62,805 nucleotides of DNA from an uncultured Gemmatimonas sp. (GTDB lineage: Bacteria > Gemmatimonadota > Gemmatimonadetes > Gemmatimonadales > GWC2-71-9). This document shows positions 27,683 to 61,958 of the stretch, one piece after another. The DNA lies in the NCBI GenBank assembly GCA_964535105.1, contig CAZHSO010000007.1:1-62805 (forward strand), in the 5' to 3' direction. The position numbers and the translations under genes are program-made. Position 1 is the stretch's first letter; each line of letters opens with the position of its first letter. The notes under the pieces were generated by a model that was given only the letters and a program-made list of their open reading frames with translations, did no database searches and had not been told where the DNA came from.

Positions 27683-27795
27683 GGGGGTTGGGGAATGGGG
27701 GTTGGGTGTTGGGGGTTGGGGCTACGCGCTCACGCTGTTCCCTAATCCCCGATCCCCAATCCCTAATCCCTATGCCCTAACCAATAACCCCGATT
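27683..27795. repeat. Inverted heptamer array (GGGGGTT / CCCCAAT), an empty copy of the family flanking the four-helix-bundle gene
   Basis: GGGGGTT GGGGAAT GGGGGTT GGGTGTT GGGGGTT GGGG, an 18-nt loop, then CCCTAAT CCCCGAT CCCCAAT CCCTAAT CCCTATG CCCTAAC... Confidence 0.9.
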
Positions 27796-42954: not shown

Positions 42955-44499
42955 TCACGCGGATGGGCAGAGCGCCCTCCGATCCAGCGCCCGATACTGA
43001 ATCGCTTCCCGCACATGCACTGGCTCGATCCCCTCCACGCCCGCCAGGTCGGCAATCGTCCGCGCCAGCTTGAGCACCCGGTGGCAGCCGCGCGCCGATA
43101 ATCCCAGTCGCTCCACTGCAGTTCGCAGGATCTCCGCCACTTCAGGGCTCTGCCGGCAATACCGTCGCACCTCCCGCGATCCCATGTGCGCGTTGGCGTG
43201 CATACCCGTTTGAGACCGGAAGCGCTCGCGCTGACGTACTCGTGCCGATTCCACCCGGGCTCGGATCGCGGCGCTCGGTTCTCCCGGGGCGTCCCGGCCG
43301 AGTTCGGCATAAGGCACCGCCGGCACCCGCAAATGGATATCGATCCGGTCGAGCAGCGGCCCCGAGATCCGCGCATGATAGCGCTCGATCAGGTGCGGCC
43401 CGCACGAGCACGAATGCACCGGACTTCCGAGATGGCCGCAGGGACAGGGATTCATCGCCGCGATGAGGGTGAAGCGGGCCGGAAAGGTGAGCCGCGCCGC
43501 CGCGCGGGAAAGCGTGACCACGCCGTCTTCCAGCGGCTGCCGAAGGACCTCCAGCACATGACGATGGAACTCCGGCAGCTCGTCCAGAAAGAGCACTCCC
43601 CCGTGCGCCAGGCTCACCTCGCCAGGCCTCGGCGCGGAGCCGCCTCCCACGAGCCCGGCATCGCTGATGGTATGGTGCGGCGCGCGAAAGGGCCGGTTCC
43701 GGATCAGGGCGGATCCTGGCGGCAACAACCCCGCCACACTATGCACCCTCGTGATTTCGAGCGCCTCGTCGAGCGGTGCCGCGGGGAGAATCGACGGCAG
43801 ACGCCGCGCGAGCATCGTTTTCCCTGCGCCGGGCGGTCCGATCAACAACACATTGTGCGCCCCCGCCGCGGCCACCTCGAGCGCCCGCTTGGCCGCGAGC
43901 TGGCCGCGCACCTCTGCGAAGTCCACTCCATCGCGCTGCCACAGATCCAGAGAGGCCAGGGTCCTGGGCACCGAGGGCGCGATCATGTGCTGGCCACTGA
44001 GATGCCGGGTCACCGCAAGCAGCGAGTCCGCCCCCGTCACGACGAGTCCCTCCACCACTGCCGCCTCGGCGACATTCACCCCAGGCAGGATGACCTCGCG
44101 GGCGCCGCCTGCCTGCGCGGCCATCGCCATTGACAGCGCGCCCCGCACCGGGCGAAGATCTCCCTGCAGGCCGAGCTCCCCCAGGACGACCAGACCCTCG
44201 AGGTCGGAAGCCTTGATCTGCTCGCTCGCGGCGAGAATCCCGAGCGCAATGGCGAGATCAAAGCCGGAGCCCTCCTTCCTCACATCAGCCGGGGCGAGAT
44301 TCACCGTGATGCGGCGAAGGGGATACTCGAAACCCGAGTTGACCAGCGCGGCGGTGACGCGCTCCTTTCCCTCCTTGACCGCGCCCTGCGGCAACCCCAC
44401 GGTGGTGAAGAAGGGCAAGCCGTTGCTGAGATCGGTCTCCACATCGACCAGGTAGGCGTCGATGCCGAGGACGGCGGCGGACTTGAGTCTGGCGAGCAT
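42955..44499 (-). CDS. comM: YifB/ComM Mg-chelatase-like AAA+ ATPase
   Basis: ITVNLAPAD..KEGS.FDL, GPPGAGKT, PFRAPHHT, LFLDELPEF, AMNPCPCG and SGPLLDRID. Confidence 0.95.
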   Translation of the reverse strand: MLARLKSAAVLGIDAYLVDVETDLSNGLPFFTTVGLPQGAVKEGKERVTAALVNSGFEYPLRRITVNLAPADVRKEGSGFDLAIALGILAASEQIKASDLEGLVVLGELGLQGDLRPVRGALSMAMAAQAGGAREVILPGVNVAEAAVVEGLVVTGADSLLAVTRHLSGQHMIAPSVPRTLASLDLWQRDGVDFAEVRGQLAAKRALEVAAAGAHNVLLIGPPGAGKTMLARRLPSILPAAPLDEALEITRVHSVAGLLPPGSALIRNRPFRAPHHTISDAGLVGGGSAPRPGEVSLAHGGVLFLDELPEFHRHVLEVLRQPLEDGVVTLSRAAARLTFPARFTLIAAMNPCPCGHLGSPVHSCSCGPHLIERYHARISGPLLDRIDIHLRVPAVPYAELGRDAPGEPSAAIRARVESARVRQRERFRSQTGMHANAHMGSREVRRYCRQSPEVAEILRTAVERLGLSARGCHRVLKLARTIADLAGVEGIEPVHVREAIQYRALDRRALCPSA

Positions 44500-44569
44500 C
44501 GAGGAGGGTATTGCGGGGAGTGGCCGGGGATGGGATCATCCCGGTGCGTTCATAGCCCGGAAACCCGCA

Positions 44570-44863
44570 ATGTCCCGTGCCTTCGTCAATGAGGATGATG
44601 CAGCCCCCGAGCCGAGGCACCGGTTTCCGCTCCCGCCCCCGGACGACCCCGGATTTCCGGAGGCTGCCGCGCGGGCGCTCCTCCAGGGGGCGAACGAGGG
44701 CGATTCATCCACCGCCGAAGCCGCCACCGGCTATCTCTTCGGAGACCCTCGCCTGGTCCTGGAGGTGAGGCGCATTCTGAAGCTGGCGCGAGAGGACGGC
44801 AACGACCGCATGGAGCAGCTCGCCGAGCGATTTCTCCAGGGCGCCGGGGAGAAACCCGAATGA
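44570..44863 (+). CDS. Small hypothetical protein beginning MSRAFVNED
   Basis: 97-aa ORF, ATGA-coupled to the creatininase gene. Confidence 0.65.
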   Translation: MSRAFVNEDDAAPEPRHRFPLPPPDDPGFPEAAARALLQGANEGDSSTAEAATGYLFGDPRLVLEVRRILKLAREDGNDRMEQLAERFLQGAGEKPE

Positions 44864-45627
44864 ACAGCGCAGAGTCCCCGCTTCTGGCGGAATCCAGCTG
44901 GAAGACGGTCCGAGATGCGCACTACGACGTCGCGGTGTTGCCATGGGGCGCCACGGAAGCGCACAACCACCACCTCCCTTATGCCACTGACACGATTCAG
45001 ACCGAGGCGGTGGCGGCGGAGTCGGCGCGCGTCGCGGGAGCGGCGGGAGCGCGGGTGATCGTCCTGCCGGCGGTGCCGTTCGGTGTGAGCACCGGCCAGC
45101 TCGATATCCCGCTCTGTCTCAACATGAATCCGACCACCCAGATGATGGTGCTCCAGGACATAGCCGAGAGCGTGTCGCGCGCGGGGGTTAGCAAGCTCGT
45201 CATCCTCAACGGACACGGCGGGAACGACTTCCGCCAGATGATTCGCGAGCTCACGCCCGACGCCGGCCCTTTTCTCTGCACCGTCAACTGGTACTCCTGC
45301 GTGAATCCGGCGCCGTTCTTCGCCGAACCCGGCGATCACGCCGGCGAGCTGGAGACGAGTGTGATGATGCACCTGGCCGCGGAGCTGGTGCGCCCGCTCA
45401 GCGAAGCGGGTCCCGGCCACGCCCGGCGCTTCAAGGTCAAAGGACTGCGGGAAGGCTGGGCGTGGGCGCCGCGCGAATGGACCAGGGTGACGGATGACAC
45501 CGGGGTCGGCAATCCCGCGCAGGCCACAGCCGAGAAGGGGGCGCGATTCTTCGAGGCGGTGACGCAGCAGATCGGTGGATTCCTCGTGGAGCTGGCCAGT
45601 GCCGATACCGAGGATCTCTATGAGTAA
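44860..45627 (+). CDS. Creatininase-family amidohydrolase
   Basis: LPWGATEAH..HLP..TD, NGHGGN, DHAGE.ETS and G.GNP..ATAEKG. Confidence 0.92.
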   Translation: MNSAESPLLAESSWKTVRDAHYDVAVLPWGATEAHNHHLPYATDTIQTEAVAAESARVAGAAGARVIVLPAVPFGVSTGQLDIPLCLNMNPTTQMMVLQDIAESVSRAGVSKLVILNGHGGNDFRQMIRELTPDAGPFLCTVNWYSCVNPAPFFAEPGDHAGELETSVMMHLAAELVRPLSEAGPGHARRFKVKGLREGWAWAPREWTRVTDDTGVGNPAQATAEKGARFFEAVTQQIGGFLVELASADTEDLYE

Positions 45628-46341
45628 GCGACTGGCTCTCTGTCTTGTCTCCCTCACCGCACTTCCGGTGGCGCTCTTCGCGCAGGGGGGAGCGCCCCTC
45701 GCCGATCCGAGAGCCGCCGACGCGGCAACGCGGCAGATGTCGCACCACGCGCACGACTCCGAGGTAAATCCTCATCTCCGGCTCAGCACCGCTCGTCCCC
45801 GCACCCCGCAGGATTCGGCGCGGGGGCAGGCTCTCGTCGCCACGATCCGCCGGGAGCTCGCGAAGTACCACGACGTGAACGTGGCGATCGCCGACGGGTA
45901 CGAGCAATTCCTCCCTAACGTGGTACTCCCGGTCTATCACTTCACCAACAAGCGCTACGGCCTCGAGGCGGCGTTCTCGTTCGACGCGTCGAAGCCCACT
46001 TCCCTGCTCTACCGAAAGAACAGCGACGGGACATTCGCCTTGACCGGGGTGATGTATACGGCGCCCGCACTCCTCGGCGAAGAACGGCTCGACCGCCGGA
46101 TTCCCCTGGGACTCGCGCGCTGGCACCAGCACATCAACTGGTGCCTCCCGAAGCAGGGGGAGGAGTCCCGCTGGCGGGAGACCCGCGCCGGCAAGCCACT
46201 CTTCGGGCCGGAGAGTCCGATCGCCTCGGCCGAGGAATGCGCCGCGGTGCCTGGCCGCTTCATCCCCCGGCTGTTTGGGTGGATGGTACACGTCAACGCC
46301 TTGAGTCCGATGATCCCGCCGTTATCTGGAGCCATCAATGA
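45620..46341 (+). pseudogene. Exported His-rich hypothetical protein with a 1-nt deletion near the 3' end
   Basis: Signal peptide; YHFTN, KPTSLLY, GVMY, WHQH.N.C and FGWMVHVN. Adding one T at about 46301 gives AFESDDPAVIWSHQ*, with the stop overlapping the next ATG. Confidence 0.65.
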
Positions 46342-47820
46342 TTCGTGTCCTGGCGCTGCTCGCCACCCAGCAGCCGGCCCTCCCCGCCGAGCTCGACAGC
46401 TATGTGGCGCAGGTGATGAAGGCGTTCGAGGTGCCCGGGCTGTCGCTCGCTGTGGTGAAGGACGGCAAGGTGCTGCTGGCCAAGGGATATGGCGTTCGGC
46501 GCATGGGCGATCCCGCTCCGGTGGACGGGAAGACCCGATTCGGGATCGCCTCCAATATCAAGGTTTTTACCGCGACCGGTCATCCGCTACCTCCCCGCCT
46601 TCGCGATGTACGACCCGTTCGTCACCCGCGAGCTCACGATCCGCGACCTCCTGGTCCATCGGAGCGGGTTAGGCCTCGGCGCGGGCGATCTGCTCTGGTG
46701 GCCTCCCTCCACCTATGACCGGATAGCGATTGCGCACCGGCTTCGCTACATCAAACCGGCCACGTAGTTCCGGAGCGCCTACGCCTACCACAACGTGCTC
46801 TACGCTGTGGCGGGAGAGGTGATCGAGGCGGTGAGCGGCCAGAGCTGGGAAGATTTCGTCGCGACCCGTATCCTGGCCAAAATCGGCATGGCGGCGAGCG
46901 ACGTCCGGCACTCCGCGGCGGGAGAGGGGGGCAACGTCGCGGGGACCCACGCGCGAATCGAAGGCGCCGTGCGCCCCATCGCGCCCTTTCTCAGCGACAA
47001 CACCAATCCCGCCGGCGGGATCATGTAGGGGGCGGAAGACATGGCCAAGTGGGTGATGGTGCAGCTCGATTCAGGCCGCACCGCGGACAGCGCTCGGCTC
47101 TTCTCCACCCGCACGACCCGCGAGCTCTGGACGATCGTCACCCCGATTCCGATCGGCGAGCCCGCCCCGGAGCTTCGCGACCTGCGCTCCCACTTCAACG
47201 GCTACGCGCTCGGACTCGGCGTGCGGGACTTCCGGGGGCGAAAGATGCTCACCCATACCGGCGGGCTCCCGGGGTGCCTCTCACGGGTAACGATGCTCCC
47301 CGAGCTGCGACTCGGCGTGGTGGTGCTGACCAACCAGGAATCCGGAGCGGCCTTCAACCTGCTCACCAACCGGATTCTCGACCATTTCGTGGGCGCCCCG
47401 ACTCCCGACTATCTCGGCATTGCCGCGCGGGCCGAAGCAGCGGAAGCAGCGCGTCCCGCGGCGGCGGCCAGCAGGCGAGCGACCAGCCGTGACTCCACCT
47501 CCGGCCCCTCGCTCCCGCCGGCCCGGTATTCCGGGACCTATCGCGACGACTGGTACGGCGACATCACGATCGCGCTCGAGGGAAACCGACTGGTGATGCG
47601 GTTCAGCCGATCGCCCAGCCTGGTGGGCGACCTCTCGCACCGGCAGCACGACACCTTCGTCGCGCGGTGGAGGGACCGGGAGCTCCGAGCCGACGCCTTC
47701 GTCACCTTCGCGCTCAATCCCGACGGCAGCATCGAGCGGGCCCGGATGACGGCCGTGTCGGACGAGACCGACTTCAGCTTCGACTTTCAGGACCTGGAGC
47801 TCAAGCCGGTCAGGCCCTAA
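46338..47820 (+). pseudogene. Disrupted serine hydrolase (beta-lactamase class C-like plus DUF3471-like C-terminus)
   Basis: SxxK (IASNIK), LLVHRSG, YAYHN and HTGG motifs are split by a deletion/frameshift at about 46575 and by in-frame TAG stops at 46765-46767 and 47026-47028. Confidence 0.88.
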
Positions 47821-48179
47821 ACGGGTTCCACCACCACCGCCGTCCCGTAACACAGCACCTCCGTCACCCCATTCATGACCTCGTTCGCATCGTACCGGAT
47901 CCCGATGACGGCGTTGCCCCCCGTCTGCTCGGCGTGCTGCAGCATCAGCTCGAAGGCTTCCTGGCGGGCCTTTTCGCAGAGGGTGACGAAGTTGCCGATC
48001 CGGCCGCCCATGATGGTCTGGAGCCCGGCCCCGATGAAGCCGATCAGCGAGCGGGAGCGGACGGTGATGCCCATGACGACACCCAGCGTCTGGACTACGT
48101 GGTATCCCTCGAGCACGAATGTCGTGGTCGTCAGGTGGTGGAGGATTTTGGGGCCGTCGTGCAGGACAGGTGTTGGCAC
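47817..48179 (-). CDS. YbjQ/UPF0145 heavy-metal-binding family protein
   Basis: TTT..LEGY.V...LG.V.G, AR.EAF..M...A...G.NAVIG.RYD and YGTAV; AGGAG RBS before GTG 48179. Confidence 0.9.
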   Translation of the reverse strand: MPTPVLHDGPKILHHLTTTTFVLEGYHVVQTLGVVMGITVRSRSLIGFIGAGLQTIMGGRIGNFVTLCEKARQEAFELMLQHAEQTGGNAVIGIRYDANEVMNGVTEVLCYGTAVVVEPV

Positions 48180-48193
48180 TGGCAGACTCCTGC

Positions 48194-48288
48194 GGGGAAG
48201 GGGGAGGCCGGAAAGGGGAAGGGTTTCGTTCCAAAAGATATCCCGTCCCCGCCTTTCCATCCTCACCCTTCCCCCTTCCCCTCTCCCC
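48194..48288. repeat. Inverted heptamer array (GGGGAAG / CTTCCCC)
   Basis: GGGGAAG GGGGAGG CCGGAAA GGGGAAG, loop, ...CCTTCCC CCTTCCC CTCTCCC. Confidence 0.75.
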
Positions 48289-48289
48289 G

Positions 48290-50983
48290 CTAATCTGCCC
48301 GAAGCGCCGCTGTCGGGTCGGCCCGCGCGGCCCGCCAGGCGGGGATCACACTCGCGATGCCGGCCACCGCCAGGAGCACCGTCGCCACCACCACGAAGGT
48401 GCCGGGATCGTGCGCGGTCACGCCGAAGAGGAGCGCCGCGAGGAATCTTCCGGCCGCGAGGGACGCCGCGGCACCCAGCACGATACCGATCACCGTGATC
48501 CGCATTCCCTCGCCGACGACGAGCCGAAGCAGGTCTCCCCTCTTGGCGCCCAGCGCGGCCCGTACGCCCATCTCGTGAGTGCGCTGGGCGACGCTGTAGG
48601 CGATGACACCGTAGAGCCCGATAGACGCCACCACCAGCGCCAGCGCGCCGAAGAGCGTGAACATCGTGGCACCAAGGCGCCAGGGCCGGAGCAGGTGATC
48701 GAGCGTGGCGCTGACGGAGCCGACACTCACGTACGCCGCTCCGGGTATCAGGCGCTGGAGCTCTCGCCGAAGCGGCTCGCTCAACCGCTCGGGGTCGCCG
48801 GCGGTCCGGATGAACAGCCACCCCGAGCCGTCGAGACTCATCGGCTCGTAGATCTGCATCCGGTCCTCGTCCCCCAGGCTGCCCCAGCGCACATCCTTGG
48901 CGATCCCGACGACTGCCGTGCAGGGCATGGTGTCGGCGTTGACCTTGATACACTGGCCGATCGCGTCGGCACCGGGCCAGACCTTGTTCGCCAGCATCTC
49001 ACTCACCACCGCGACCCGTGCCGGTCCCGACCGATCGGAGAGAGTGAGCGGCCGGCCGCGCAGGATCACGGTACCGGTCGCCTCGAAGTAGTCGTCCGCG
49101 ACGACGTTCTGGTAAAACGCGCCGAGGCTGTTCAGGGAATCGCGTCCGGGCACGAACAGGTCGGTGGTCTTGCTCCGCCAGAAGGGAACCCCGAAGGTCA
49201 GCGTGGCCTTCTCGACGCCGGCCATTCCGCGAGCCCGGTCGAGAAGCCGCTGGGTCAGCACGGCGCGCTCCGCGGGCGTGAGCCGCTCGCCGCGCATGTT
49301 GGGTCGCACCACGATCAGGCGCGACGGCTCATAGCCCAGATCGACCGAGTGGACGTTGCGAAGGCTTCGGACGAAGAGCCCCGCGCCGACCAGGAGCATG
49401 ACTGAGAGCGCGGCCTGGGCCACCAGGAGCCCCGACTGCAGGCGGGCGCGGGACCGGCTCCCCTCCCGTCCGCCGGCCTTGAGCGACACGTTGAGATCGG
49501 TGCGGCCCGCATGCCACGCGGGGATGAGCCCGGTCAAGAGCCCGGTGAGCACTGCCATGCCGGTCGCGAAGAGCAGCATGCGAGGGTCGAGCAGCGGCAC
49601 AGCCGACCAATCGACACCGGGAAGCAGCGAGCGCCGAAGGATCCCGCCGCCAAAATGCGCGATGAAGAGACCGACCGCTCCACCCATGAGGGCGAGCAGC
49701 GAGCTCTCGGTGAGGAGCTGCCGCAGCATCCGGCGGCGTCCGGCGCCGAGCGCGAGGCGCACCGCGATCTCCCGGCGGCGGCGGAGCGCGCGCCCGAGGA
49801 GGAGGTTGGCGACGTTGGCGCAGGCGATCAGCAGCACGATAACGGCAACCCCGGCCAGCCAAGTCGCGACTTTCGCGTCATCGCTTCGCTTCGGCCCCCG
49901 CTGGTACAGCGCGGAAGCGAGCTCAGCCCTGGACCGCGCGATGGCTTCAGGGTGGTTCTCGGGTAGTGTCGAGAGCTCCTGCTGGAAGGCAAGCGTCAAG
50001 TCGGCATCGGCGGTTTCCGCCGTCACCCCGGGTTCGCGTCGAGCCAGCATCTCGAGCCAGGACATATTATGGGTCGCGAAGTAGCGGTCGCCGAAACCGT
50101 CGAATGCGCCGGCGGTAATCGGGATAAATGCCCCGACCCGCCGGGCTGACATGCCGGTGAAACCCCTGGGCGCGACGCCGATCACGGTGTACGATCGCGG
50201 GCCCACCAGGAGCTGCTTGCCGATGACCGAGGGGTCGCCGCCGTATTCAGACTGCCAAAAACCGTAGCCCAGCACTACCACAGGAGAGCCGCCCGGGGTG
50301 CGGTCCTCCTCTTCCCCGAAAAAGCGCCCGATGGCGGGCACGATATCGAACATCGACCAGAAGCTCGCGCTGACCAGCGAAACATCGAGCTGGCGCGCGT
50401 TCTCGCCGGCGCCAACCACATATTCCTGGTCGTCGTAGAACGCGGCCGATGCTTCGAGGCTTCTGGACGCGGCGAGATCGAGATAGCGCCGATAGCTGAT
50501 GTTGTTGTCGATCCGCTCGGCCCCGTCAGTCCGGGGACGGCGGATATAGACCCGACCGGAGCGGTCCGGGTCCTTGAGGAAGGGGGGTGGCCGCAGGAGC
50601 AGGCGATCCACGACGCCGAACATCGTGGCATTGGCCCCGATGCCGAGTCCCAGAGTGAGCACGACCAGCGCGGCGAATCCCGGCTGGCGGCGAAAACCCC
50701 GTAACGCGTACCCCACGTCCTGCACCAGATCCTGGAACCGGCTGGCTCGTCGTTCATGCATTCGTCGCTCCCGGTCGATGCGCGCGAGGGCCGCGCGGGT
50801 GTCCGCGATGCTGCCGAAGCGCTGGCGGGCTTCCTTTTCGGCGACGTCCGGAGAGTAGCCCCGCGCGACCAGCGCGCGGATCTCCTCGTCGAGATGGAAG
50901 CCGATTTCCTGCTCGATTTCCTCTTCGACCGAGGGCGGCCGTCCGACCAGGCGAAAAAGGCGCCGCAATGCCGGGAGGGCCAC
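48290..50983 (-). CDS. ADOP-family duplicated MacB/FtsX permease with N-terminal prefix domain
   Basis: EEIEQEI.FHL...I..L...G....A...AR.RFG prefix; LGLGIGAN, LLIACANVANLLL, RRREIA.R.ALGA and RT.EMG.R.ALGA. Confidence 0.92.
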   Translation of the reverse strand: MALPALRRLFRLVGRPPSVEEEIEQEIGFHLDEEIRALVARGYSPDVAEKEARQRFGSIADTRAALARIDRERRMHERRASRFQDLVQDVGYALRGFRRQPGFAALVVLTLGLGIGANATMFGVVDRLLLRPPPFLKDPDRSGRVYIRRPRTDGAERIDNNISYRRYLDLAASRSLEASAAFYDDQEYVVGAGENARQLDVSLVSASFWSMFDIVPAIGRFFGEEEDRTPGGSPVVVLGYGFWQSEYGGDPSVIGKQLLVGPRSYTVIGVAPRGFTGMSARRVGAFIPITAGAFDGFGDRYFATHNMSWLEMLARREPGVTAETADADLTLAFQQELSTLPENHPEAIARSRAELASALYQRGPKRSDDAKVATWLAGVAVIVLLIACANVANLLLGRALRRRREIAVRLALGAGRRRMLRQLLTESSLLALMGGAVGLFIAHFGGGILRRSLLPGVDWSAVPLLDPRMLLFATGMAVLTGLLTGLIPAWHAGRTDLNVSLKAGGREGSRSRARLQSGLLVAQAALSVMLLVGAGLFVRSLRNVHSVDLGYEPSRLIVVRPNMRGERLTPAERAVLTQRLLDRARGMAGVEKATLTFGVPFWRSKTTDLFVPGRDSLNSLGAFYQNVVADDYFEATGTVILRGRPLTLSDRSGPARVAVVSEMLANKVWPGADAIGQCIKVNADTMPCTAVVGIAKDVRWGSLGDEDRMQIYEPMSLDGSGWLFIRTAGDPERLSEPLRRELQRLIPGAAYVSVGSVSATLDHLLRPWRLGATMFTLFGALALVVASIGLYGVIAYSVAQRTHEMGVRAALGAKRGDLLRLVVGEGMRITVIGIVLGAAASLAAGRFLAALLFGVTAHDPGTFVVVATVLLAVAGIASVIPAWRAARADPTAALRAD

Positions 50984-50985
50984 GG

Positions 50986-51336
50986 TTACCTGGCCGCCGC
51001 CACGCTGGTGGAGCGAAGCACCTTGAACACCGCCCCGGCGTACCGCGACCAGAGGTCCGCCTCCCGGCGCAGCTCCCGTCGCCCGCCGTCGGTCAGCTCG
51101 TAGTACTTGGCTTTGCGGTTGTTGTCGGAGAGGCCCCACTCCGCTTCGGTGAGTCCCCGCTTCTCGAGGCGATGCAGCGCGGTATAGAGCGCCCCGTCCT
51201 CAATGTTGAGATCATCCTCGGTGGTGGCGCGGATCCAGCTGGCGACAGCGTGGCCGTGCCGGGGGCCCCACGAGAGAGCCTTGAGCACGAGCACGTCGAG
51301 GGTGCCCTGCAGGAGGTCGAGCTCGGCGCGTGGCAT
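50986..51336 (-). CDS. PadR-family regulator (acidobacterial ADOP-associated type)
   Basis: LLQGTLD.L.LK.L, G.LY.ALHRLE and WG.S.NNR.AKYY.LT..GR..L. Confidence 0.93.
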   Translation of the reverse strand: MPRAELDLLQGTLDVLVLKALSWGPRHGHAVASWIRATTEDDLNIEDGALYTALHRLEKRGLTEAEWGLSDNNRKAKYYELTDGGRRELRREADLWSRYAGAVFKVLRSTSVAAAR

Positions 51337-51343
51337 TTGTTCC

Positions 51344-51358
51344 CCTGAAGTGTTCAGG
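51344..51358. promoter_or_regulatory. Putative PadR operator
   Basis: Perfect inverted repeat CCTGAA-GTG-TTCAGG, 8 nt upstream of the padR ATG. Confidence 0.6.
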
Positions 51359-51397
51359 AGAGATATTGAGGGGGAGGGGCGCAGATGTCAAGCGGAA

Positions 51398-51947
51398 GGG
51401 AGTTGGGGGTTGGGAGTTGGGGATTGGGGGAGAAGCCCAGTCGGCGGGGATTCGGGCCTTCCGGCGGCGGAACGATGCTCTTACAGGTCGCGAAGCACCC
51501 AAGATTGTATCATGCCGGTAAATCGAAGTGCGACGATTCGCTCACATCGAGATCTGGAGGTGTGGCAGACGGCATTAGCGCTCGCATTCGAGACGTACCG
51601 CCTCACCGAGCAGTTCCCCAAAAGAGAAATTTACGGTCTCGCATCTCAAATGCCTCGTGCAGCTGCTTCAATCCCGTCGAACATCGCGGAGGGCCATGGC
51701 CGGGAGACGACTCGTGATTACCTCAGATTTCTCACCATTGCAGCCGGGTCGCTGCGAGAACTCGACACTTACTTCGTCTTGAGCCTCAAATTGGGATTCG
51801 TTCCTGACCAGCAGGTCGAGAAGCTGGGAAATGTGGCGGAGAGCATCGGCAAGATGCTTACTAGTCTGCGAGCGGCTCTACGCCGCAGACTCGGCGCCAA
51901 GTCCCCCGGCCCTTGACCCCAACCCCCAACTCCCAACTCCCAATCCC
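51398..51947 (+). mobile_element. Candidate element: four-helix-bundle gene bracketed by inverted heptamer arrays
   Basis: Left arm GGGAGTT GGGGGTT GGGAGTT GGGGATT GGGG (51398-51429); right arm CCCC AACCCCC AACTCCC AACTCCC AATCCC (51917-51947). It lies antisense within an otherwise all-minus gene block. Confidence 0.55.
51512..51916 (+). CDS. Four-helix-bundle protein (23S rRNA IVP / Avd-like family)
   Basis: SHRDLEVWQ, FPKRE.YGL.SQM.RAA.SIPSNIAEG.GR and FL.IA.GSL.EL.T. Confidence 0.92.
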   Translation: MPVNRSATIRSHRDLEVWQTALALAFETYRLTEQFPKREIYGLASQMPRAAASIPSNIAEGHGRETTRDYLRFLTIAAGSLRELDTYFVLSLKLGFVPDQQVEKLGNVAESIGKMLTSLRAALRRRLGAKSPGP

Positions 51948-51955
51948 TGCTTTCC

Positions 51956-54694
51956 TCACTCTGCTCTTAGCGCAACAATCGGATCGACTCGCGAAGCGCG
52001 CCGCGCCGGCAGCCAGCTTGCCACCAGCGCCACCACGCCCAGGCCGAGGGCCACCGCGCCAAGTGTCGCCGGGTCGTTGGGGTGGACGCCGTAGAGGAGC
52101 GAAGACAGCAGTCGCGACACGCCAATGGCCCCCGCCACCCCGACCGCCAGTCCCGCGGCAACCAACCGCGCACCCTGGCCCAGCACCAACCCGCGGACGG
52201 TCTGCCGGTCGGCGCCGAGCGCCATCCGGATACCGATTTCCCGGGTGCGCTGCGCGACGGTGTAACTCAGTACCCCGTGTACTCCCACCATCGCGAGCAG
52301 CAGCGCGACGGCGGCAAAGACTCCGAGCAGGAGCATCGTGAAACGGCGCTGCCCGGTCGAGTGCGATAGCGTTTCGACCAGCGGCTCGATTCCGTAGAGC
52401 GGTACCGTTGGATCCAGCTCGCGCACGACGCCGCGGAGCGTTCGCGCAAACGTCGCAGGATCTCCGTTCACCCGAACCAGGACACTCCCGTTGGGAACCG
52501 GCGCCTGGCTGGTCGGCAAATACACTGCCGGAGTCGCCGCCTCGGCCAGTCCGTGGAACCGCTCGTCGGCGAACACGGCCACGATGGTCCGCTCGCTCCC
52601 CCAGAGCCGGATGCGATGTCCCAGCGGGTTCTGATCTCCGAAGAACCGTCTGCGCGCCGCCTCGTTGATCCCGAGCACCGGAGCCGCGTCGGCGTCGTCA
52701 CTCAGCGCTCGGCCGGCTGCGAGAGGCACCCGCATCGTTGCCTGATATCCCGAATCCACCAACCGGATCGACGGCTCGGGCCAGTCGGCGGCCTCCGCTT
52801 CCTTGCCCACGACCACGATCGAGCTGGTGTACCCGGCTTCGAGCGGATGTGCCCCTGCGATCGTAACCCCCTGGACCCCGGGAAGTCCCGCCACGCGACG
52901 ACGAAGCTCCTCATTGAATCGCCGGATTTCCTGCCATCGCGGCCACTCGGACATGCGCTGAGGGTAACTGGCCGGCAGCTGGAATTCCGCCTTGAGCACG
53001 CCTTCAGCATGAAACCCTGGATCCACCTGGTACAGTCGCCACAAGCTCTTGATCAGCAGGCCGGCTCCGACCATCAGGATCACCGCGAGCGCCAGCTCGG
53101 CCACCACGAGCGCCGAGCGGAAGCGTCGGTGCTCCTTCCCTGAGGAGGCGCCCCGCGACGCGTCCGCCTGCAGACCAAGATTGGACCCGCGGCGCCGAGC
53201 CTGAGTTGCCGGCACGAGCCCGAAGGTCACTCCGACGATGGCGGTCAGCGCGAGCGTGACGGCCAGCACTCTGGCATCGATCCCCACAGCGCTCACCCTC
53301 GGAATGCTCGCCGGCGCGAGGGCGAGGAGCACCTGCAGTCCAGCGAGTGCCAGGACTACGCCCACCAGCGCTCCTGCCCCGGTGAGCACGGCGCTCTCCA
53401 CCAGGAACTGCCGCGTCAACCGCCCCACGCTGGCGCCGAGCGCTGCGCGGACCGTCACCTCCCGCTCCCGCGCGGCCCCGCGGGCCAGCAGCAGGTTCGC
53501 CACATTGGCACAGGCAATCAGCAGCACCAGAGCCACGGCGCCGACGAGCACGAAGAGCGCGGGTTTCACCCCTCCGAACACCACGTCGGAGAGCGGTTCC
53601 ACATTCGCGCCCCGGCCATCGTTCGCCTCGGGGTACAGTCGCTCGAGATCCGCGGCGATGGCCCCCATCTCCTCGTGTGCCTGATTCATTGTCGCGCCTG
53701 GCGTGAGCCGTCCCATCACGAAAATCGGATGATTCCCCCGATCCGCCGCCGTCCGATTGGCCTGGAGGGGAAGCCACACATCCACTCGGACGAGCACACC
53801 GCGATCGGCGAAGCCTCTCCGGTAGGCGGCGACCCCGAGAATCTGCAGCGTGCCGAAGTCGGCTGACGCCGGGAGGACGCCCACGATGGTGTACGGAGCA
53901 TCGTTGATGCGGACCACCCTGCCGACGGCCGAGGGATCGCGTCCGAAGCGCTCGCTCCACAGCTCCTCGCCGATCATCGCCACCGGGGGAGCCCCGTCCC
54001 GGTCCTGGTCCGCGCTGAACGTGGCGCCGAGCAGCGGCCGGATCCCCACCATCGGCAAAAATTCGTGACTGACCCAGAGGGCCGCGAGGCGCACGGGGTC
54101 GCCCCCATCCGGCGCCACGGTCGCGGTGATGGGAGAAAAGGCGGCCATGCGTTCGTACTGCGTGCTCCGCTCCTGAAAATCGAAATAGTCGGGGATCGAG
54201 GCTGGCTCCCGTAGGGTACCGCTCTTGCGATCGGTCTCCCAGATCATGGTCAGCCGGTCGATCGCGGCGAAGGGAGCGGGTCTGAGGAGGACGCCGTCGA
54301 CCACGCTGAAGATCGCGGTGTTCGCCCCGATGCCGAGAGCGAGGGTGAGCACGACCGCGAGCGCAAAGCCGGGCGTGCGGGCGAGTGAGCGGACCGCCTG
54401 CTGGAATTCCGTGATGAGGTCGCGCATGGTCAACCGGGAGATGGTGGGTGAGTTCGAGTGAGGTGGACTGGCCGTACGATGTCCGAATCGGTTCAGGCGC
54501 TCCGCCGTCGCGCCGCGAAGGAGATCGAAGAGGAGTCCGAGCCTTGCCGCGGCGGCTCCGGGCCCCGACCCGGCACTGCGCCAGGCGTCGCGAAAGATCA
54601 GCAGCAGATCGTCGCCGAATTGCTCGCGGAAACCGCGAGGGTAGAGCCGGAGAAGCAACCGGCCCAGGCCACGAACCTTCTCGCTGCCCGTCAT
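51956..54694 (-). CDS. ADOP-family duplicated permease with LLRLYP..FR..FG N-terminal domain
   Basis: LALGIGANTAIFSVV, LLIACANVANLLLAR, RTREIGIRMALGA and PARRA..VDP..ALR.E. Confidence 0.93.
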   Translation of the reverse strand: MTGSEKVRGLGRLLLRLYPRGFREQFGDDLLLIFRDAWRSAGSGPGAAAARLGLLFDLLRGATAERLNRFGHRTASPPHSNSPTISRLTMRDLITEFQQAVRSLARTPGFALAVVLTLALGIGANTAIFSVVDGVLLRPAPFAAIDRLTMIWETDRKSGTLREPASIPDYFDFQERSTQYERMAAFSPITATVAPDGGDPVRLAALWVSHEFLPMVGIRPLLGATFSADQDRDGAPPVAMIGEELWSERFGRDPSAVGRVVRINDAPYTIVGVLPASADFGTLQILGVAAYRRGFADRGVLVRVDVWLPLQANRTAADRGNHPIFVMGRLTPGATMNQAHEEMGAIAADLERLYPEANDGRGANVEPLSDVVFGGVKPALFVLVGAVALVLLIACANVANLLLARGAAREREVTVRAALGASVGRLTRQFLVESAVLTGAGALVGVVLALAGLQVLLALAPASIPRVSAVGIDARVLAVTLALTAIVGVTFGLVPATQARRRGSNLGLQADASRGASSGKEHRRFRSALVVAELALAVILMVGAGLLIKSLWRLYQVDPGFHAEGVLKAEFQLPASYPQRMSEWPRWQEIRRFNEELRRRVAGLPGVQGVTIAGAHPLEAGYTSSIVVVGKEAEAADWPEPSIRLVDSGYQATMRVPLAAGRALSDDADAAPVLGINEAARRRFFGDQNPLGHRIRLWGSERTIVAVFADERFHGLAEAATPAVYLPTSQAPVPNGSVLVRVNGDPATFARTLRGVVRELDPTVPLYGIEPLVETLSHSTGQRRFTMLLLGVFAAVALLLAMVGVHGVLSYTVAQRTREIGIRMALGADRQTVRGLVLGQGARLVAAGLAVGVAGAIGVSRLLSSLLYGVHPNDPATLGAVALGLGVVALVASWLPARRASRVDPIVALRAE

Positions 54695-55065
54695 GCGGTT
54701 CGCGGCTTGGAAAGGACCCGCTTGGCGCGAGCCAACTCGACCAGACGGAGATGGCGCGCGGCCTCCGCACTGAGGGCCCGGCGTCCCATCGGGGTGAGAT
54801 GGTAGTAGCGGCGGCGCTCGTCATCGAGCAGCGGGTCGGGGCGCCGCCCGCTCTCCACGACAAGACCGATTTCCAGAAGTCGCTTGAGCGCGCCGTACAG
54901 CGTACCGGGTCCGAGCCGCACCCTTCCGCCACTCTCCTCCGCGACATCTTGCATCAGCGCATACCCGTGCCGCTCTCCCTCCATCAGGGCAAGCAGGAGG
55001 TGATACCATGCAGGAGGCAGTGGCAGCAGGCGTTCGATCTCGGACATGGCACTCTCCGAAGTCAT
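54691..55065 (-). CDS. PadR-family regulator
   Basis: HLLLAL..GERHGY, LGPGTLYG...RL and DERRRYY.LT..GR. Start is 55065 or 55047; ATGA-coupled to the permease. Confidence 0.92.
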   Translation of the reverse strand: MTSESAMSEIERLLPLPPAWYHLLLALMEGERHGYALMQDVAEESGGRVRLGPGTLYGALKRLLEIGLVVESGRRPDPLLDDERRRYYHLTPMGRRALSAEAARHLRLVELARAKRVLSKPRTA

Positions 55066-55079
55066 AGCTCGGCGGACAG

Positions 55080-55098
55080 TATATCGTTCGTCGATATA
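55080..55098. promoter_or_regulatory. Putative PadR operator
   Basis: Perfect inverted repeat TATATCG-TTCGT-CGATATA just upstream of the second padR. Confidence 0.65.
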
Positions 55099-55113
55099 AT
55101 AGCGACACATGAG

Positions 55114-55179
55114 GCTAACGGCCATCGGCCAATTGCTAACCGCTCGGTTAGCGGCTAGCGGTTGGCGGTTAGCCGTTTG
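55114..55179. repeat. Inverted heptamer array (GCTAACC / CGGTTAG)
   Basis: GCTAACG GCCATCG GCCAATT GCTAACCG, short loop, CGGTTAG CGGCTAG CGGTTGG CGGTTAG CCGTTTG. Confidence 0.8.
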
Positions 55180-55181
55180 CG

Positions 55182-57599
55182 CTACTCGGACCTCAACGCA
55201 ACCATTGGATCCACCCGTGTCGCCCGGCGCGCCGGGATCAGCGTGGCGAACAGCGCCACCACGACGAGCCCGGCCGACACACCGAGGAAGACCGTCGGAT
55301 CGGCGGCCTTGGTCTGGAAGAGCTGGGTGGCGAGAACCTTTCCGAGCGCCAGGGCGCCCCCCACGCCGAGGGCGATGCCGATCCCCGCGAGGACGAGCCC
55401 CTTGTTGAGCACGAGGCGGAGCACACTCGACGACTCTGCGCCGAGCGCCATCCGAATGCCGAGCTCGCGGGTCTGCTGGGCCACGGTGTAGGACATCACT
55501 CCGTAGATCCCCACCGCGGCAAGTGTGGCCGCCACCGCTGCGAAGAGCCCGAGCAGAAGCGAGAGGAAGCGCGGCTGCGACGATGAGCCGGACACCCGCT
55601 CGTCCATCGCGCGGACATCGTAGATCGGCTGCTGGGGATCGATGGCCAGCACCAGCTTGCGCACCGCGGGCTCGATGGCGCGCGGGTCGCCCCGGGTCCG
55701 GATGGCAAAGCCGAGCTGGGTCTGCGCCTGCTGAGAGAATGGCCGGTAGAGCTGGGTGTGCTCGTCGTCCTTCGGGCTGTTCTGCATCACATGGCCGACG
55801 ACGCCGATCACATCCCACCACTCAGGGTTTTCCTGCGTCCCGCCGCGCCCGAGGTGCTTGCCAATCGGGTCCTGGCCCGGCCAGTACTTGGCCGCGAGCA
55901 CCTCATCGACGATCGCCACCTTCCGCCCCTGCGTCACGTCGGTCTCGTCGAACTCCCGTCCCTTCTTGACGGGGATACCCATCGTGGTGAAGTACCCCGG
56001 GGTCACGATGCGGAAATCCCCCCACGGACCGTTGGCGTTGGGCGCTGGCTGAAATCCCTCGACCCGGAAGCTGCCGGTCCAGTTGTTGTTGCTCATCGGG
56101 AGCGCCACGTTGCCGCCCACGGTCTCGACACCGGGCAGCCCCGCGATGCCGTGGCGGAGCTGATCGAAGAAGGCCACCCGCTGCTCCGGGCTCGGATACT
56201 TGACCCCCGGAAGCGAGACACTCAGCGTGAGCACCCGCGCCGGATTGAACCCCGGGTCCACCGCCACCCAGCGACGGAAGCTCTTGAGCATGAGCCCGGC
56301 GCCGATCAGGAGCACGATTGCCAGCGCGACTTCGGAAACCACCAGCGTGGCGCGCAATCCGGAGCCGCGATGCGAGCTGCGCACCCCGTCCTTGAGCATG
56401 CCGTGCAGCGCGGGCCGCGCAGCCTGGATGGCCGGCGCCAGCCCGAAGAGGAGACCGAGCACGACGGTGATCCCGCCGGTAAAGAGGAGCACCGATCCGT
56501 CGAGAGCCACCGCGTCCATGCGGGGAAGGTTGACGGGATTACTCGCGACGAGTCCCCGCACCGCGCCGTACGCCAGCACCAGTCCGGCGCTGCCGCCGAG
56601 TACGGAGAGCAGCACGCTCTCGGTCAGCAGCTGGCGGGCCAGCCTGCCCCGGCCGGCGCCCATCGCCGTCCGAATCGCGATCTCCCGCTGCCGGCCGGCG
56701 GCGCGCGCCAGGAGGAGATTGGCGAGGTTGGCGCAGGCGATCAGCAGCACGAATCCCACCGCACCCATGAGAACGTAAAGCGCCCCTTTGACGTTCCCGA
56801 CCACCGCCTCGGTGATGGGACGCGAATACAGTCCCCAGTCGGCGTCCCTGTTGGAGGCCTGGTTTTCCCGCACCACCTTGGCCATCCGCTCGAGATCCGT
56901 CGTGGCCGCTTCCCGGGTGACTCCCGGCTTGAGGCGGGCGACCATGCCCATCCATTCGCAGCCCCAGCAATTGGGATCGACGTCCTGCGGCGTGAAGGCG
57001 AGGGGCTTCCAGATGGCGATGGGGTCGGTGCCAAACTGAAATCCGTTCGACACCACGCCCACGACGACATGGTTTTCGCCGTTGACGACGAGCGATTTGC
57101 CGATGATGCCGCGGTCCCGGGCAAAATCGCGGGTCCAGAGCCCTTCACTCAGCACGACGACCTTGTCCGCCCCGGGGACTTCCTCGTCGGCGCTAAATCC
57201 CCGGCCCAGGAGCGGGGTCACCCCGAGGGCCGCGAAGTATTCCGCCGTGGCGCGCTGGCCCACCAGACGGACCGGCTCGCCGTTGTTGGCGAGGTTCGCT
57301 TCCCAGCCGGTGAACGCCGCGCTTCGCTCGAACACGCGATTCTGCTGCTGGTAGAAGCGGAAACCGGCCCCGGAGACACCGGCGTCGAGATTGAGCTGCT
57401 TGTAGCGGTGCCCGACGAGCTCGATCCGCTCCGGCTCGCCCAGCGGCAGGGGCCGGAGCAGCACGCCATTGACCACGCTGAAGATGGCGGTGTTGGCGCC
57501 GATGCCGAGCGCAATGGTGACGAGAGCGGTCAGCGTGAACCCGGGAGACTTGCGGAAGCTGCGGAGCGCGAAACGAATGTCCTGCCAGAGCGTCGTCAT
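55182..57599 (-). CDS. ADOP-family duplicated permease (no prefix domain)
   Basis: QDIRFALRS.RK.PGF, ALGIGANTAIFSVV, LLIACANLANLLLAR and TRELGIRMALGA. Confidence 0.93.
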   Translation of the reverse strand: MTTLWQDIRFALRSFRKSPGFTLTALVTIALGIGANTAIFSVVNGVLLRPLPLGEPERIELVGHRYKQLNLDAGVSGAGFRFYQQQNRVFERSAAFTGWEANLANNGEPVRLVGQRATAEYFAALGVTPLLGRGFSADEEVPGADKVVVLSEGLWTRDFARDRGIIGKSLVVNGENHVVVGVVSNGFQFGTDPIAIWKPLAFTPQDVDPNCWGCEWMGMVARLKPGVTREAATTDLERMAKVVRENQASNRDADWGLYSRPITEAVVGNVKGALYVLMGAVGFVLLIACANLANLLLARAAGRQREIAIRTAMGAGRGRLARQLLTESVLLSVLGGSAGLVLAYGAVRGLVASNPVNLPRMDAVALDGSVLLFTGGITVVLGLLFGLAPAIQAARPALHGMLKDGVRSSHRGSGLRATLVVSEVALAIVLLIGAGLMLKSFRRWVAVDPGFNPARVLTLSVSLPGVKYPSPEQRVAFFDQLRHGIAGLPGVETVGGNVALPMSNNNWTGSFRVEGFQPAPNANGPWGDFRIVTPGYFTTMGIPVKKGREFDETDVTQGRKVAIVDEVLAAKYWPGQDPIGKHLGRGGTQENPEWWDVIGVVGHVMQNSPKDDEHTQLYRPFSQQAQTQLGFAIRTRGDPRAIEPAVRKLVLAIDPQQPIYDVRAMDERVSGSSSQPRFLSLLLGLFAAVAATLAAVGIYGVMSYTVAQQTRELGIRMALGAESSSVLRLVLNKGLVLAGIGIALGVGGALALGKVLATQLFQTKAADPTVFLGVSAGLVVVALFATLIPARRATRVDPMVALRSE

Positions 57600-57606
57600 C
57601 GGGGCC

Positions 57607-58473
57607 TCAGCGGGGGCCGGTCGTGATCCTGATGTCGCCGGAAAGTGATTCCACGTCGAGCTTGGCGGAGCCGGATCCCCAGGTGGCGCTGTGGCGCCTC
57701 CGGTGGCGTCCGGATTGCTGCGTAGTTTGAAGGTCAGACGAGAAACGCCCCGAAAAGGTTGCCGCCGAGAGTGTCGCGTTCGGCCGGTCGCGGAGCCCGA
57801 GGGTGATGTCGCCGCTGGTGGTGGTGAACTCGTAGGACCCGTCGTCCAGGATGGGGCCCCGGAACGTCACCTCGCCGCTCACCGTGTTGCCCGTGACGTC
57901 GCGCGCCCGCACGTCGAGCAGGTCGACGTCGCCGCTCACCGTTTCGAGTTCGATCCGCTGGCCCCGGCCGCCGTCGAGGCGCACGTCGCCCGAGACGCTG
58001 CTGAGCTCGAGCTCGCCCTCGAGATTGCTGGCCGCGAGGTCGCCGCTCACGGTCCCGATCTTGAGGATCAACCCGGCGGGAACCCGGATTGTGAAGTTGA
58101 GCTCGGTGTCGTTGCGATCGTGGCTGCCGTTCCAGCTGTTCCAGCTGCAGGGGCTCTTTTCCCCATCCTCGCTTCCCCCGTCCCGGCGTCTTCCCTGTCC
58201 CGGGTAGCGCACGCAAAGCGCGACTCCGTTGTCGAGCTCAATTGTCTCTACCGTCACATCCTCGATCTCACCGTATCGGCCGGCCTTTTTGACCGCCGTA
58301 ACCTCGACCGTGCGCCCGCTGCCGCCGGTCACCTGGATGTTACCCATGATGTTCTGCACGACCAGCCGCTTGCCGGAGGCGAGCTCCCGGCGGAATTCGA
58401 AGTCGGGCCGCCCCTGCGCGGCGAGGGTTGTGGCCGCGCCCAGTGCCGCGACGGCGAGGATCGAAGTGCGCAT
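57607..58473 (-). CDS. Exported DUF4097 beta-strand-repeat protein
   Basis: Signal peptide and repeated (T/S)VSGD motifs. Confidence 0.88.
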   Translation of the reverse strand: MRTSILAVAALGAATTLAAQGRPDFEFRRELASGKRLVVQNIMGNIQVTGGSGRTVEVTAVKKAGRYGEIEDVTVETIELDNGVALCVRYPGQGRRRDGGSEDGEKSPCSWNSWNGSHDRNDTELNFTIRVPAGLILKIGTVSGDLAASNLEGELELSSVSGDVRLDGGRGQRIELETVSGDVDLLDVRARDVTGNTVSGEVTFRGPILDDGSYEFTTTSGDITLGLRDRPNATLSAATFSGRFSSDLQTTQQSGRHRRRHSATWGSGSAKLDVESLSGDIRITTGPR

Positions 58474-61923: not shown

Positions 61924-61958
61924 AGCACGCTTCCCCCTTCCCCTTTCCCCCTTCCCCG
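61891..61958. repeat. Inverted heptamer array (GGGGAAG / CTTCCCC) between convergent genes
   Basis: GGGGAAG AGGGAAA GGGGAAG GGGGAAG, loop, CTTCCCC CTTCCCC TTTCCCC CTTCCCC. Confidence 0.88.

Follow-up and report, generated by a model that had tools for sequence, protein, structure and literature searches.

The DNA between a padR gene and an ADOP permease gene in the window (the whole 62,805-nt stretch analysed here) contains a 550-bp unit that belongs to a large class of cassettes spread across many phyla. In this class, a gene for a basic, Avd-like four-helix-bundle (4HB) protein lies between two inverted arrays, each with about 4–5 tandem units of 7 nt (in some cases 8 nt), and the 3′ array abuts the stop codon. 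On balance, the unit is probably an intervening-sequence-type cassette that resides outside rRNA, with the arms as part of the element and with pairing, binding and copying as its inferred mechanism. Within the genus, the cassette is a discrete accessory module: at fixed positions between genes it has undergone loss, truncation or replacement by alleles of deep divergence, and this turnover is much faster than the divergence of the flanking genes. Tandem heptamer arrays have been a puzzle of bacterial genomes for decades, and the PF05635 proteins encoded by the 4HB genes make up a very large orphan family whose structures have been solved and whose function is not known. The occurrence of the two as one package in many phyla provides a testable context for each of them.

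The cassette between padR and ADOP

The 4HB gene (51512..51916, plus strand) runs from an ATG at 51512 to a TGA at 51914–51916 and encodes a protein of 134 residues with a pI of 10.1, the median being 10.0 for 56 4HB genes from relatives. The product matched the PF05635 profile over positions 1–106 of 106 (E=1.3e-35, 122.3 bits, cut-off 33.8) and the TIGR02436 profile with 115.8 bits (cut-off 24), and by these profiles it can be assigned to the family as a full-length member. The core residues L15, W18, N57, G61, E83 and L119, invariant among 25 aligned Gemmatimonadales members including the source protein, are present in it, and Q46, R49, S53, E60 and S80 are at least 90% conserved in the same alignment. 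Residues 4–127 matched the PDB entry 2GSC (XCC0516; E=2.7e-28), which has five chains, and the solved structure 2RLD was also matched; by similarity to these two structures, the protein is predicted to adopt a four-helix-bundle fold and to form a homo-oligomer. It has no known catalytic motif. The 4HB gene is the single ORF of the cassette, which has no transposase ORF, and a PADLOC run reported 0 families.

The GC content of the 4HB gene is 57%, compared with 68% for the window, and its GC3 is 0.61, compared with 0.80–0.88 for padR and two ADOP genes, in agreement with an earlier note made from the sequence, which had pointed to more A/T-ending codons than in the neighbours. Among 110 4HB ORFs, the GC content was 5–9 points lower than that of the flanks in every host GC class, and it tracked the host GC with a slope of 0.89 (r 0.91). 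The gene had also been described as the only plus-strand one in a 13-kb minus-strand block; all ORFs with a GC3 of at least 0.80 at 42955–58473 do lie on the minus strand, a partial confirmation that covers the genes on either side of 44.7–48.2 kb.

The G-rich 5′ arm (51398..51430) consists of 4.7 tandem heptamers (GGGAGTT, GGGGGTT and GGGGATT), and the 3′ arm (51917..51947), its reverse complement, consists of 4.4 (CCCCAAC and TCCCAAC); TRF assigned a period of 7 to both. The first base of the 3′ arm, 51917, is the base right after the stop codon, and the spacing between the arms of the cassette is 486–503 nt. The segments 51403–51429 and 51917–51943 are 93% complementary over 27 nt, with a 17-nt perfect core. 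Folding of 51385–51960 as RNA paired the arms in both the minimum free energy (MFE) and the centroid structures (z = −4.0), and 0 of 100 shuffled sequences were equally stable. The sequence, TRF and the profiles confirm the arrangement as originally noted, a 134-residue 4HB gene within inverted heptamer arrays with the 3′ array directly after the stop codon.

No Shine-Dalgarno sequence was recognised in the leader, the 81 nt that separate the start codon from the 5′ arm (51431..51511, plus strand), and a scan of 51150–52150 for sigma-70 promoters and intrinsic terminators returned 0 and 0. If a promoter lies inside the leader, the 5′ arm will be absent from the 4HB gene's own mRNA. A motif search of 47 4HB leaders found only a modest k-mer excess (AAAGG, GATTG and ATTGG; z 3–5) and did not bear out a two-box pattern that had been noticed by eye. 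On the other side of the 5′ arm, the padR upstream region with a palindrome (51337..51397) is 95% identical to that of G011, the closest genome compared, and remains conserved among congeners as far as the outer end of the arm, which marks the left boundary of the cassette. A motif ending in GTCAAG, just outside the arm, was also present in 7 relatives for which that flank was compared.

The left neighbour, encoding a PadR-family regulator (TIGR03433; 50986..51336, minus strand), is divergent from the 4HB gene, and the right neighbour, encoding an ADOP-family permease (TIGR03434; 51956..54694, minus strand), is convergent with it, the permease stop codon being 8 nt away from the 3′ arm. The 4HB gene is antisense to both. 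Rfam detected no rRNA in the locus; among the 7 loci scanned, a sub-threshold match to mir-181 at one (L004) was taken as spurious.

Heptamer arms are a property of the 4HB gene family

The window is contig C7 of the source genome, G000, a 3.55-Mb assembly of 204 contigs (88% complete, 67% GC); C-numbers hereafter denote its contigs and the cassette sites on them. G000 has 8 PF05635 genes. Six of them are enclosed by inverted tandem arrays lying 427–504 nt apart, with a different unit in each case (GGGAGTT, CAGCCTT, AGCGAAG, the 8-mer GACGCGAR, GTGAACG and GGGGAAG), and the other two, on C11 and C49, lack such an enclosure. The six enclosed loci had inverted-repeat scores of 17–30, with 21 for the padR-ADOP locus, and none of 1500 random G000 positions reached a score of 16 (Fisher test, 6/8 vs 0/1500, p = 2e-15).

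As a further control, we scored 2480 GC3-rich ORFs of 90–220 aa, among which three, at two loci (C44 and C57), reached 16. Neither locus was accepted as a split hairpin: C44 is an ordinary CMD-family gene that has a solitary array at one end and, at the other, a tight hairpin that is complete in itself and built from one unit family, and at C57 (RlmH) both halves of a tight hairpin are already present within the string reported as an arm. The long-gap array pairs at C12:50205, C61:1421, C49:11469, C56, C34 and C25 contained no 4HB remnant detectable by tblastn or HMM searches, and C12:50205 and C61:1421 were read as lone arrays or complete hairpins next to ordinary genes. Thus, the only genes seen in the loop of a genuine split hairpin in G000 were 4HB genes, and the enclosure of these genes by inverted heptamer arrays is not due to chance. 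A dispersed repeat of 125–150 nt, also considered as an armed element, was dismissed, as only 3 of its 29 copies were enclosed by arms.

The G000 paralogs that could be aligned with the padR-ADOP 4HB protein (5 of 7) were only 23–43% identical to it, making a copy-and-paste spread of the gene, at least a recent one within the genome, unlikely. An IS- or MITE-type element was rejected for the same lack of near-identical copies and for the absence of a transposase ORF.

The family is carried by 37 of 41 Gemmatimonadales genomes, G000 included. When the best locus of each genome was considered, 26 of 30 (again with G000) had a flanking inverted repeat with a score of at least 14, and 23 of these 26 were period-7 or period-8 arrays by eye. 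Oriented by their ORFs, 48 of 56 4HB genes in the Gemmatimonadales relatives scored at least 14. (The counts 26/30, 48/56 and 84/117 include one G010 locus; without it they become 25/29, 47/55 and 83/116.) The 3′ arm lay within about 20 nt of the stop codon or overlapped it in most of the 56 oriented genes, whose leaders were typically 35–140 nt long. With respect to the neighbouring genes, the 4HB gene was convergent with the downstream one, the 3′ arm facing that gene's 3′ end, in 38 of 49 relatives; it was antisense to both neighbours in 22 and co-oriented in 10 of the 49.

We extended the scan to other phyla, using a query alignment of 7 sequences and one genome per species. The 80 loci returned came from Alpha-, Beta-, Gamma- and Deltaproteobacteria, Planctomycetes, Bacteroidetes, Acidobacteria, Cyanobacteria, Chloroflexi, Clostridia, candidate-phyla-radiation groups and others. 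Two with short flanks were dropped. Of the 78 scored, 54 reached 14 and 44 reached 16, compared with 1 of 142 controls shifted by 800 nt; the arms were clearly tandem in 43 of the 54 armed loci, mostly with period 7. Period-7/8 arrays occurred at 257 per 100 kb within 300 nt of a 4HB gene and at 17 per 100 kb beyond that distance, a 15-fold difference. Homologs are therefore strongly enriched for flanking period-7 inverted arrays (6/8, 48/56 and 54/78, against 0/1500 and 1/142 in the controls), as the earlier note had anticipated. The arms are a property of the 4HB gene family and not of the padR-ADOP site.

Arrays of the same kind also form hairpins that hold no gene. One of them, at 27683..27780 of the window, is of the same unit family as the padR-ADOP cassette and consists of a GGGGGTT-type arm, a loop of 17–25 nt and a CCCTAAT-type arm (arrays at 27683–27721 and 27739–27780). 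It had been taken for an empty copy of the cassette repeat; the arrays are indeed present, but their complementarity as DNA is only 75% over 36 nt, and the segment folds well only as plus-strand RNA, by means of G-U pairs (−67.2 kcal/mol, z −5.3; minus strand, z −0.7). Among tandem arrays with at least 3 copies in G000, 658 had period 7, 138 period 6 and 82 period 9. The loops of 110 of 160 inverted array pairs were at most 78 nt long, and depending on the criterion the genome has 110–149 tight gene-less hairpins as against 6 cassettes. The G-rich arm came first in 93 of 100 gene-less hairpins, and these were found in all configurations of neighbouring genes.

In the genus, array density correlated with the number of 4HB genes (rho 0.74, p 0.006, n=12, a value uncorrected for kinship and including four samples of only 17–41 kb). 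Five sampled genomes with 0–2 4HB genes had 0–5 arrays per 100 kb, and seven with 6–11 genes had 10–35. Array density did not follow the 4HB number in two sister families (rho −0.61, n=7), and G031 had 8 4HB genes but 1 array per 100 kb. With a loose criterion of one mismatch, 57% of the G000 arrays agreed with a resident cassette unit, compared with 23–38% for the units of other genomes; in this cognate-unit test, the diagonal was highest or tied in each row. Beyond one mismatch of any resident cassette arm unit were 384 of 901 G000 arrays (43%). The data are suggestive of an array load that may depend on the 4HB gene in a RAYT/REPIN-like manner.

We also looked for signs of the nucleic acid in which the arms act. 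Arm mismatches on the sense strand comprised 56 G-U and 47 A-C (p 0.43), with no G-U excess. The stems of 84 cassettes, folded as mini-hairpins, were more stable in the sense orientation in 36 cases and in the antisense orientation in 37. For 95 gene-less hairpins, the better-folding strand showed no relation to gene direction (10 vs 11 between plus-strand genes and 9 vs 9 between minus-strand genes). Two candidates from sequencing runs were discarded. Contigs that join 51429/51430 to 51909–51917, as excision would, had 20–28 matching letters per side and represent arm-only matches from other loci or organisms; a 201-nt contig covering 51483–51680 was too weak as a transcript, since its run is labelled metatranscriptomic but flagged 'probably DNA'.

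Turnover at fixed sites

At the padR-ADOP site, G000 and G011 are 88–95% identical in the flanking genes and the padR upstream region, whereas the ORF is 62% identical and the leaders, with 32% identity, are unalignable; the break occurs at the arms. The two 4HB proteins are 56.7% identical, and their synonymous divergence is saturated (pS 0.73), compared with a dS of 0.23–0.39 for the PadR and ADOP genes. The dN/dS of the allele pair is 0.11. By these values, the alleles are old and functional and occupy a young site. In other congeners, the junction has cassettes with other units (G011 and also G003, whose ORF is damaged) or gaps of 7–92 nt (G004, G015, G008, G017 and G007, one of them with a mini-hairpin), and the copy in G013 is ambiguous. 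Since padR-ADOP modules are paralogous, the orthology of the distant 'empty' junctions, with flanks 67–81% identical, is uncertain. The 4HB genes at padR-ADOP type sites form one clade (support 93/95).

Other sites gave similar pictures. At the C38 site, the flanks of G000 and G011 are 88–92% identical, and the cassettes are unalignable and have different arms; the 4HB proteins belong to different, well-supported clades, the more distant G003 having a member of the G000 clade. G011 has only degraded or half 4HB genes at the C24, C29 and C49 sites and is empty at the C13 site, with 19 nt between the flanks; conversely, the C26 site has a cassette in G011 and 17 nt in G000. None of the 6 resolvable G000 cassette sites, a tally that leaves out the C11 and C109 sites, had a simple ortholog in G011: 2 were deeply diverged or of a different clade, 3 degraded and 1 empty. 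With empty, truncated and swapped alleles at orthologous sites, the 4HB gene is not syntenically fixed. The proposal of a selfish or mobile cassette in the earlier note holds in so far as the arm enrichment of homologs and these alleles support a discrete cassette that is gained and lost; copy-and-paste of the gene does not fit the 23–43% identity of the paralogs. The genus thus lends itself to further study, as it offers close genomes with occupied, truncated, swapped and empty sites and with array loads differing about 3- to 10-fold or more.

Whether the arms go with the gene or with the site was examined by comparing units across clades and sites. Like units recur within protein clades at different sites: those of the GTGAAC clade at the C13 and C53 sites, those of the 8-mer group at the C46 and C53 sites, and those of a GCTAT-unit group of 4HB proteins at three sites. 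The arm unit sequence thus tends to go with the protein clade and not with the site. There is also evidence of the other kind. At 8 sites that have a cassette in relatives, G000 has a gene-less hairpin of a different unit in 3 and array remnants in 3 more, and the C13 cassette arms share an inner GGGAAC..GTTCCC motif with gene-less hairpins of the same unit family. Both lines of evidence can be true together if a cassette, complete with its arms, may take the place of a hairpin or cassette already resident at a site.

Readings of the cassette and comparison with known systems

In the intervening-sequence-type reading that we prefer, the two arrays would pair in single-stranded nucleic acid and form a stem of about 30 bp that defines where the element begins and ends. 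The 4HB protein, being basic and oligomeric, would bind the repeated units and bring in host enzymes, which would be RNase III if the substrate is RNA, as in the Coxiella intervening sequence (IVS), or replication or recombination enzymes if it is DNA. This would lead to copying or exchange of the cassettes, and also of the gene-less hairpins that belong to their unit families, in a RAYT/REPIN-like manner without a recognisable transposase.

Alternatively, the hairpins may have come first, as host structures for termination, mRNA ends or DNA structure, with 4HB genes of unrelated function landing or persisting in their loops as safe sites. Such an origin would account for the gene-less hairpins of another unit in G000 at 3 of 8 sites occupied by cassettes in relatives (with remnants at 3 more), for the inner GGGAAC..GTTCCC motif of the C13 arms, for the excess of tight gene-less hairpins (110–149) over cassettes (6), and for the sister families that have 4HB genes but few arrays. 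We regard it as rather unlikely, considering that arms flank the 4HB gene in many phyla with the array density falling 15-fold beyond 300 nt, that units follow the protein clade across sites, that the array density does not exceed 5 per 100 kb in genus members with 0–2 4HB genes, and that the Coxiella heptamers, in the excerpts of PMC4990558, are inside an rRNA helix and not in a host terminator. A less probable alternative is an RNA-processing module akin to the rRNA IVS, in which the arms pair in the transcript and are cut by RNase III, controlling the 4HB mRNA or the mRNA ends of the neighbours rather than DNA mobility. The absence of sense/antisense asymmetry among the 84 cassettes and the better-folding strand's independence of gene direction in the 95 gene-less hairpins speak against it, and it leaves presence/absence and allele swaps unexplained; the pairing of the arms in the MFE structure (z −4.0), the convergent host gene whose 3′ end the 3′ arm faces in 38 of 49 relatives and the excision of the Coxiella IVS by RNase III at a 28-bp terminal stem (PMC4990558, in excerpt) are what it would explain.

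An ordinary, fast-evolving and vertically inherited small gene, with the arrays as by-products of replication slippage, would be compatible with the single clade of padR-ADOP type genes (93/95), with purifying selection (dN/dS 0.11) and with a GC content that tracks the host (slope 0.89, r 0.91). We count this explanation, which is very improbable, as already contradicted by the saturated pS of 0.73 next to a flank dS of 0.23–0.39, by the different clades at one site in the closest genome pair, by the empty and truncated alleles, and by the paired arrays themselves, as slippage does not account for a pair of complementary arrays that are separated by about 490 nt and recur in many phyla. Hardly credible at all is a role of the protein as the accessory variability determinant (Avd) of a diversity-generating retroelement (DGR): the family resembles Avd, according to the part of PMC10053308 consulted, but the match to the Avd model NF033474 is a weak one of 23.6 bits, far below the cut-off of 80, and no reverse transcriptase (RVT_1) was found in the 88%-complete G000 assembly or beside the 4HB gene.

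Going beyond the intervening-sequence-type reading, we propose tentatively, as a possible though doubtful extension, that PF05635 proteins and tandem-heptamer hairpins constitute a two-part replicator of a new kind, in which the gene would occupy one of the hairpins and its product, a non-HUH oligomer, would read 7-nt-periodic single strands by unit family and drive the copying or exchange of cassettes and gene-less hairpins. If true, this would explain the heptamer repeats of cyanobacteria, Xanthomonas, Bacteroidetes and others as well as the origin of ORF-bearing rRNA IVS, and alleles that differ to saturation at synonymous positions while sharing one fixed site would be long-lived, exchangeable specificity alleles.

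The cassette can be compared with several known systems. Integron gene cassettes are promoter-poor single genes swapped at fixed sites, their attC site being recognised by its folded single-strand structure rather than by its sequence. They depend on an integrase and an attI site and have one attC hairpin behind the gene; the 4HB cassette has none of these and has two arms enclosing the gene. Avd and XCC0516 (2GSC) are small, basic four-helix-bundle proteins like the 134-residue protein, and a DGR differs from the cassette by its reverse transcriptase, template repeat and variable repeat, which are absent from the padR-ADOP locus.

RAYT/REPIN systems, as described in excerpts of PMC3337134, PMC3116915, PMC5581495 and bioRxiv 10.1101/2021.07.10.451892, likewise have a low-copy gene flanked by an inverted short repeat, and at the padR-ADOP locus too the gene is flanked by inverted copies of a dispersed repeat type. 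In these systems as in ours, the repeat is also dispersed as many gene-less hairpins, and recent duplication of the gene is not seen; repeat abundance tracks the gene in RAYT/REPIN systems and may do so within the genus studied here. The difference is that RAYTs are HUH/Y1 transposases working with one palindrome, whereas the cassettes have many unit families of tandem heptamers and several paralogs per genome with fast turnover; the RAYT model (PF01797) had 0 matches in the 88%-complete G000 assembly.

Intergenic heptamer arrays have been described in Xanthomonas (GGGAATC) and Nostoc (GGGGA(C/T)T) (PMC4692102), and TAACTGA heptamer repeats in Beggiatoaceae, cyanobacteria and Bacteroidetes (PMC4679880). 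In the excerpts of these two papers, the arrays resemble those of G000 in being tandem 7-nt repeats, mostly intergenic, G-rich and often in convergent inverted pairs, and the units and copy numbers shift between close relatives, as they do here. The G000 arrays bracket a 4HB gene, whereas the terms four-helix-bundle, S23 and IVS have 0 occurrences in either paper.

The closest counterpart is the IVS of Coxiella burnetii, an insert in 23S rRNA that contains an S23p ORF of the PF05635 family; according to excerpts of PMC4990558, its 28-bp terminal stem is cut by RNase III, resulting in excision, and three tandem heptamers, whose copy number varies among strains, precede the S23p start codon. ORF-bearing 23S rRNA IVS are also reported there for Leptospira, Brucella and Xanthomonas-type S23p (PMC4990558, in excerpt). 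Among the publications searched, which included few subscription journals and no supplements, the family-wide association of 4HB genes with heptamer arms was not found, and the Coxiella IVS alone comes close; it appears to be the only case already in print of a 4HB-type ORF with heptamers and a terminal stem (PMC4990558). What the padR-ADOP window adds is the turnover within a genus, the saturated and bounded allele pair, the units that tend to follow the protein clade, and the correlation between 4HB number and array load. The rRNA IVS and the padR-ADOP cassette share the protein family and terminal inverted repeats that form a stem of about 28–30 bp around the ORF. The Coxiella IVS, as excerpted in PMC4990558, has its variable-copy heptamers at the 5′ end, has a decaying ORF in some lineages and is regarded as selfish. 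The rRNA IVS sits in a helix of 23S rRNA, whereas the padR-ADOP cassette is intergenic and both its arms are wholly heptamer arrays. With an S23p ORF, a 28-bp terminal stem and tandem heptamers on the Coxiella side (PMC4990558), the two thus have the same design in different locations, and the package of 4HB gene and arms, which shares the rRNA-IVS design, shows the turnover of an accessory element, its alleles having sharp boundaries and an ancient divergence.

Base composition of the four-helix-bundle gene

Base composition was compared across 110 loci of the four-helix-bundle gene (PF05635/TIGR02436), taken from Gemmatimonadales genomes and from a one-genome-per-species scan across phyla. 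In all host GC classes, from 25% to 75%, the GC content of the ORF lay 5–9 points below that of its own flanks. Over the same loci, the GC content of the ORF tracked that of the host, with a slope of 0.89 and an r of 0.91. In the window, a single 201-nt contig matched 51483–51680 at 100% identity, from the last part of the leader into the beginning of the ORF; its source run is labelled metatranscriptomic and flagged 'probably DNA'.

Gene-less hairpins and other repeats

The window contains six further inverted pairs of period-7 arrays without a gene inside, located at 427–475 (unit AGGCAGG), 1130–1201 (GTAAGCG), 13671–13733 (GAGTAGC), 15985–16065 (GTGAGCG), 35745–35804 (CCAGCAC) and 61891–61957 (GGGGAAG). 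They are part of a set of 110–149 tight hairpins in the whole genome (G000). In 93 of 100 tight hairpins examined genome-wide, the G-rich arm was the 5′ arm, a strong polarity that held on both strands. One speculative explanation is extension of a strand and then snap-back copying, which would produce such a polarity.

The same genome carries a dispersed non-coding repeat of 125–150 nt, found at locus L003 (positions 277–426, corresponding to 1926–2075 of contig C34) and in at least 28 other places; its 29 long copies are 83–93% identical. Heptamer arrays sometimes adjoin this repeat, and arms enclose just 3 of the 29 copies. A search of Rfam with the repeat returned no match.

In two relatives from one sister family, a long non-tandem inverted repeat flanks the four-helix-bundle gene in place of the heptamer arrays (L039, on contig C11 of G031, and L036, on contig C2 of G035). 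At L039 this repeat is 75 nt long, and arrays are nearly absent from the G031 genome (1 per 100 kb).

Arrays that run into coding sequence

In several relatives (L027, L022, L015, L028, L039 and others), the final stretch of the four-helix-bundle ORF overlaps with the 3′ arm, as seen from negative 3′ spacers, so that the C-terminal tail is translated from heptamer repeats. Separately, at L004 (positions 150–600; contig C44 of G000), a GTGAACG heptamer array supplies the start codon and opening residues of a CMD-family gene, and after the stop codon of that gene comes a complete hairpin built from this unit family.

Possible overlap with a CRISPR survey

A figure legend in a large CRISPR survey (PMC10910872) names '23S rRNA IVP' among the proteins associated with CRISPR arrays. 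The CRISPR-array finders might have detected heptamer arrays flanking these genes.
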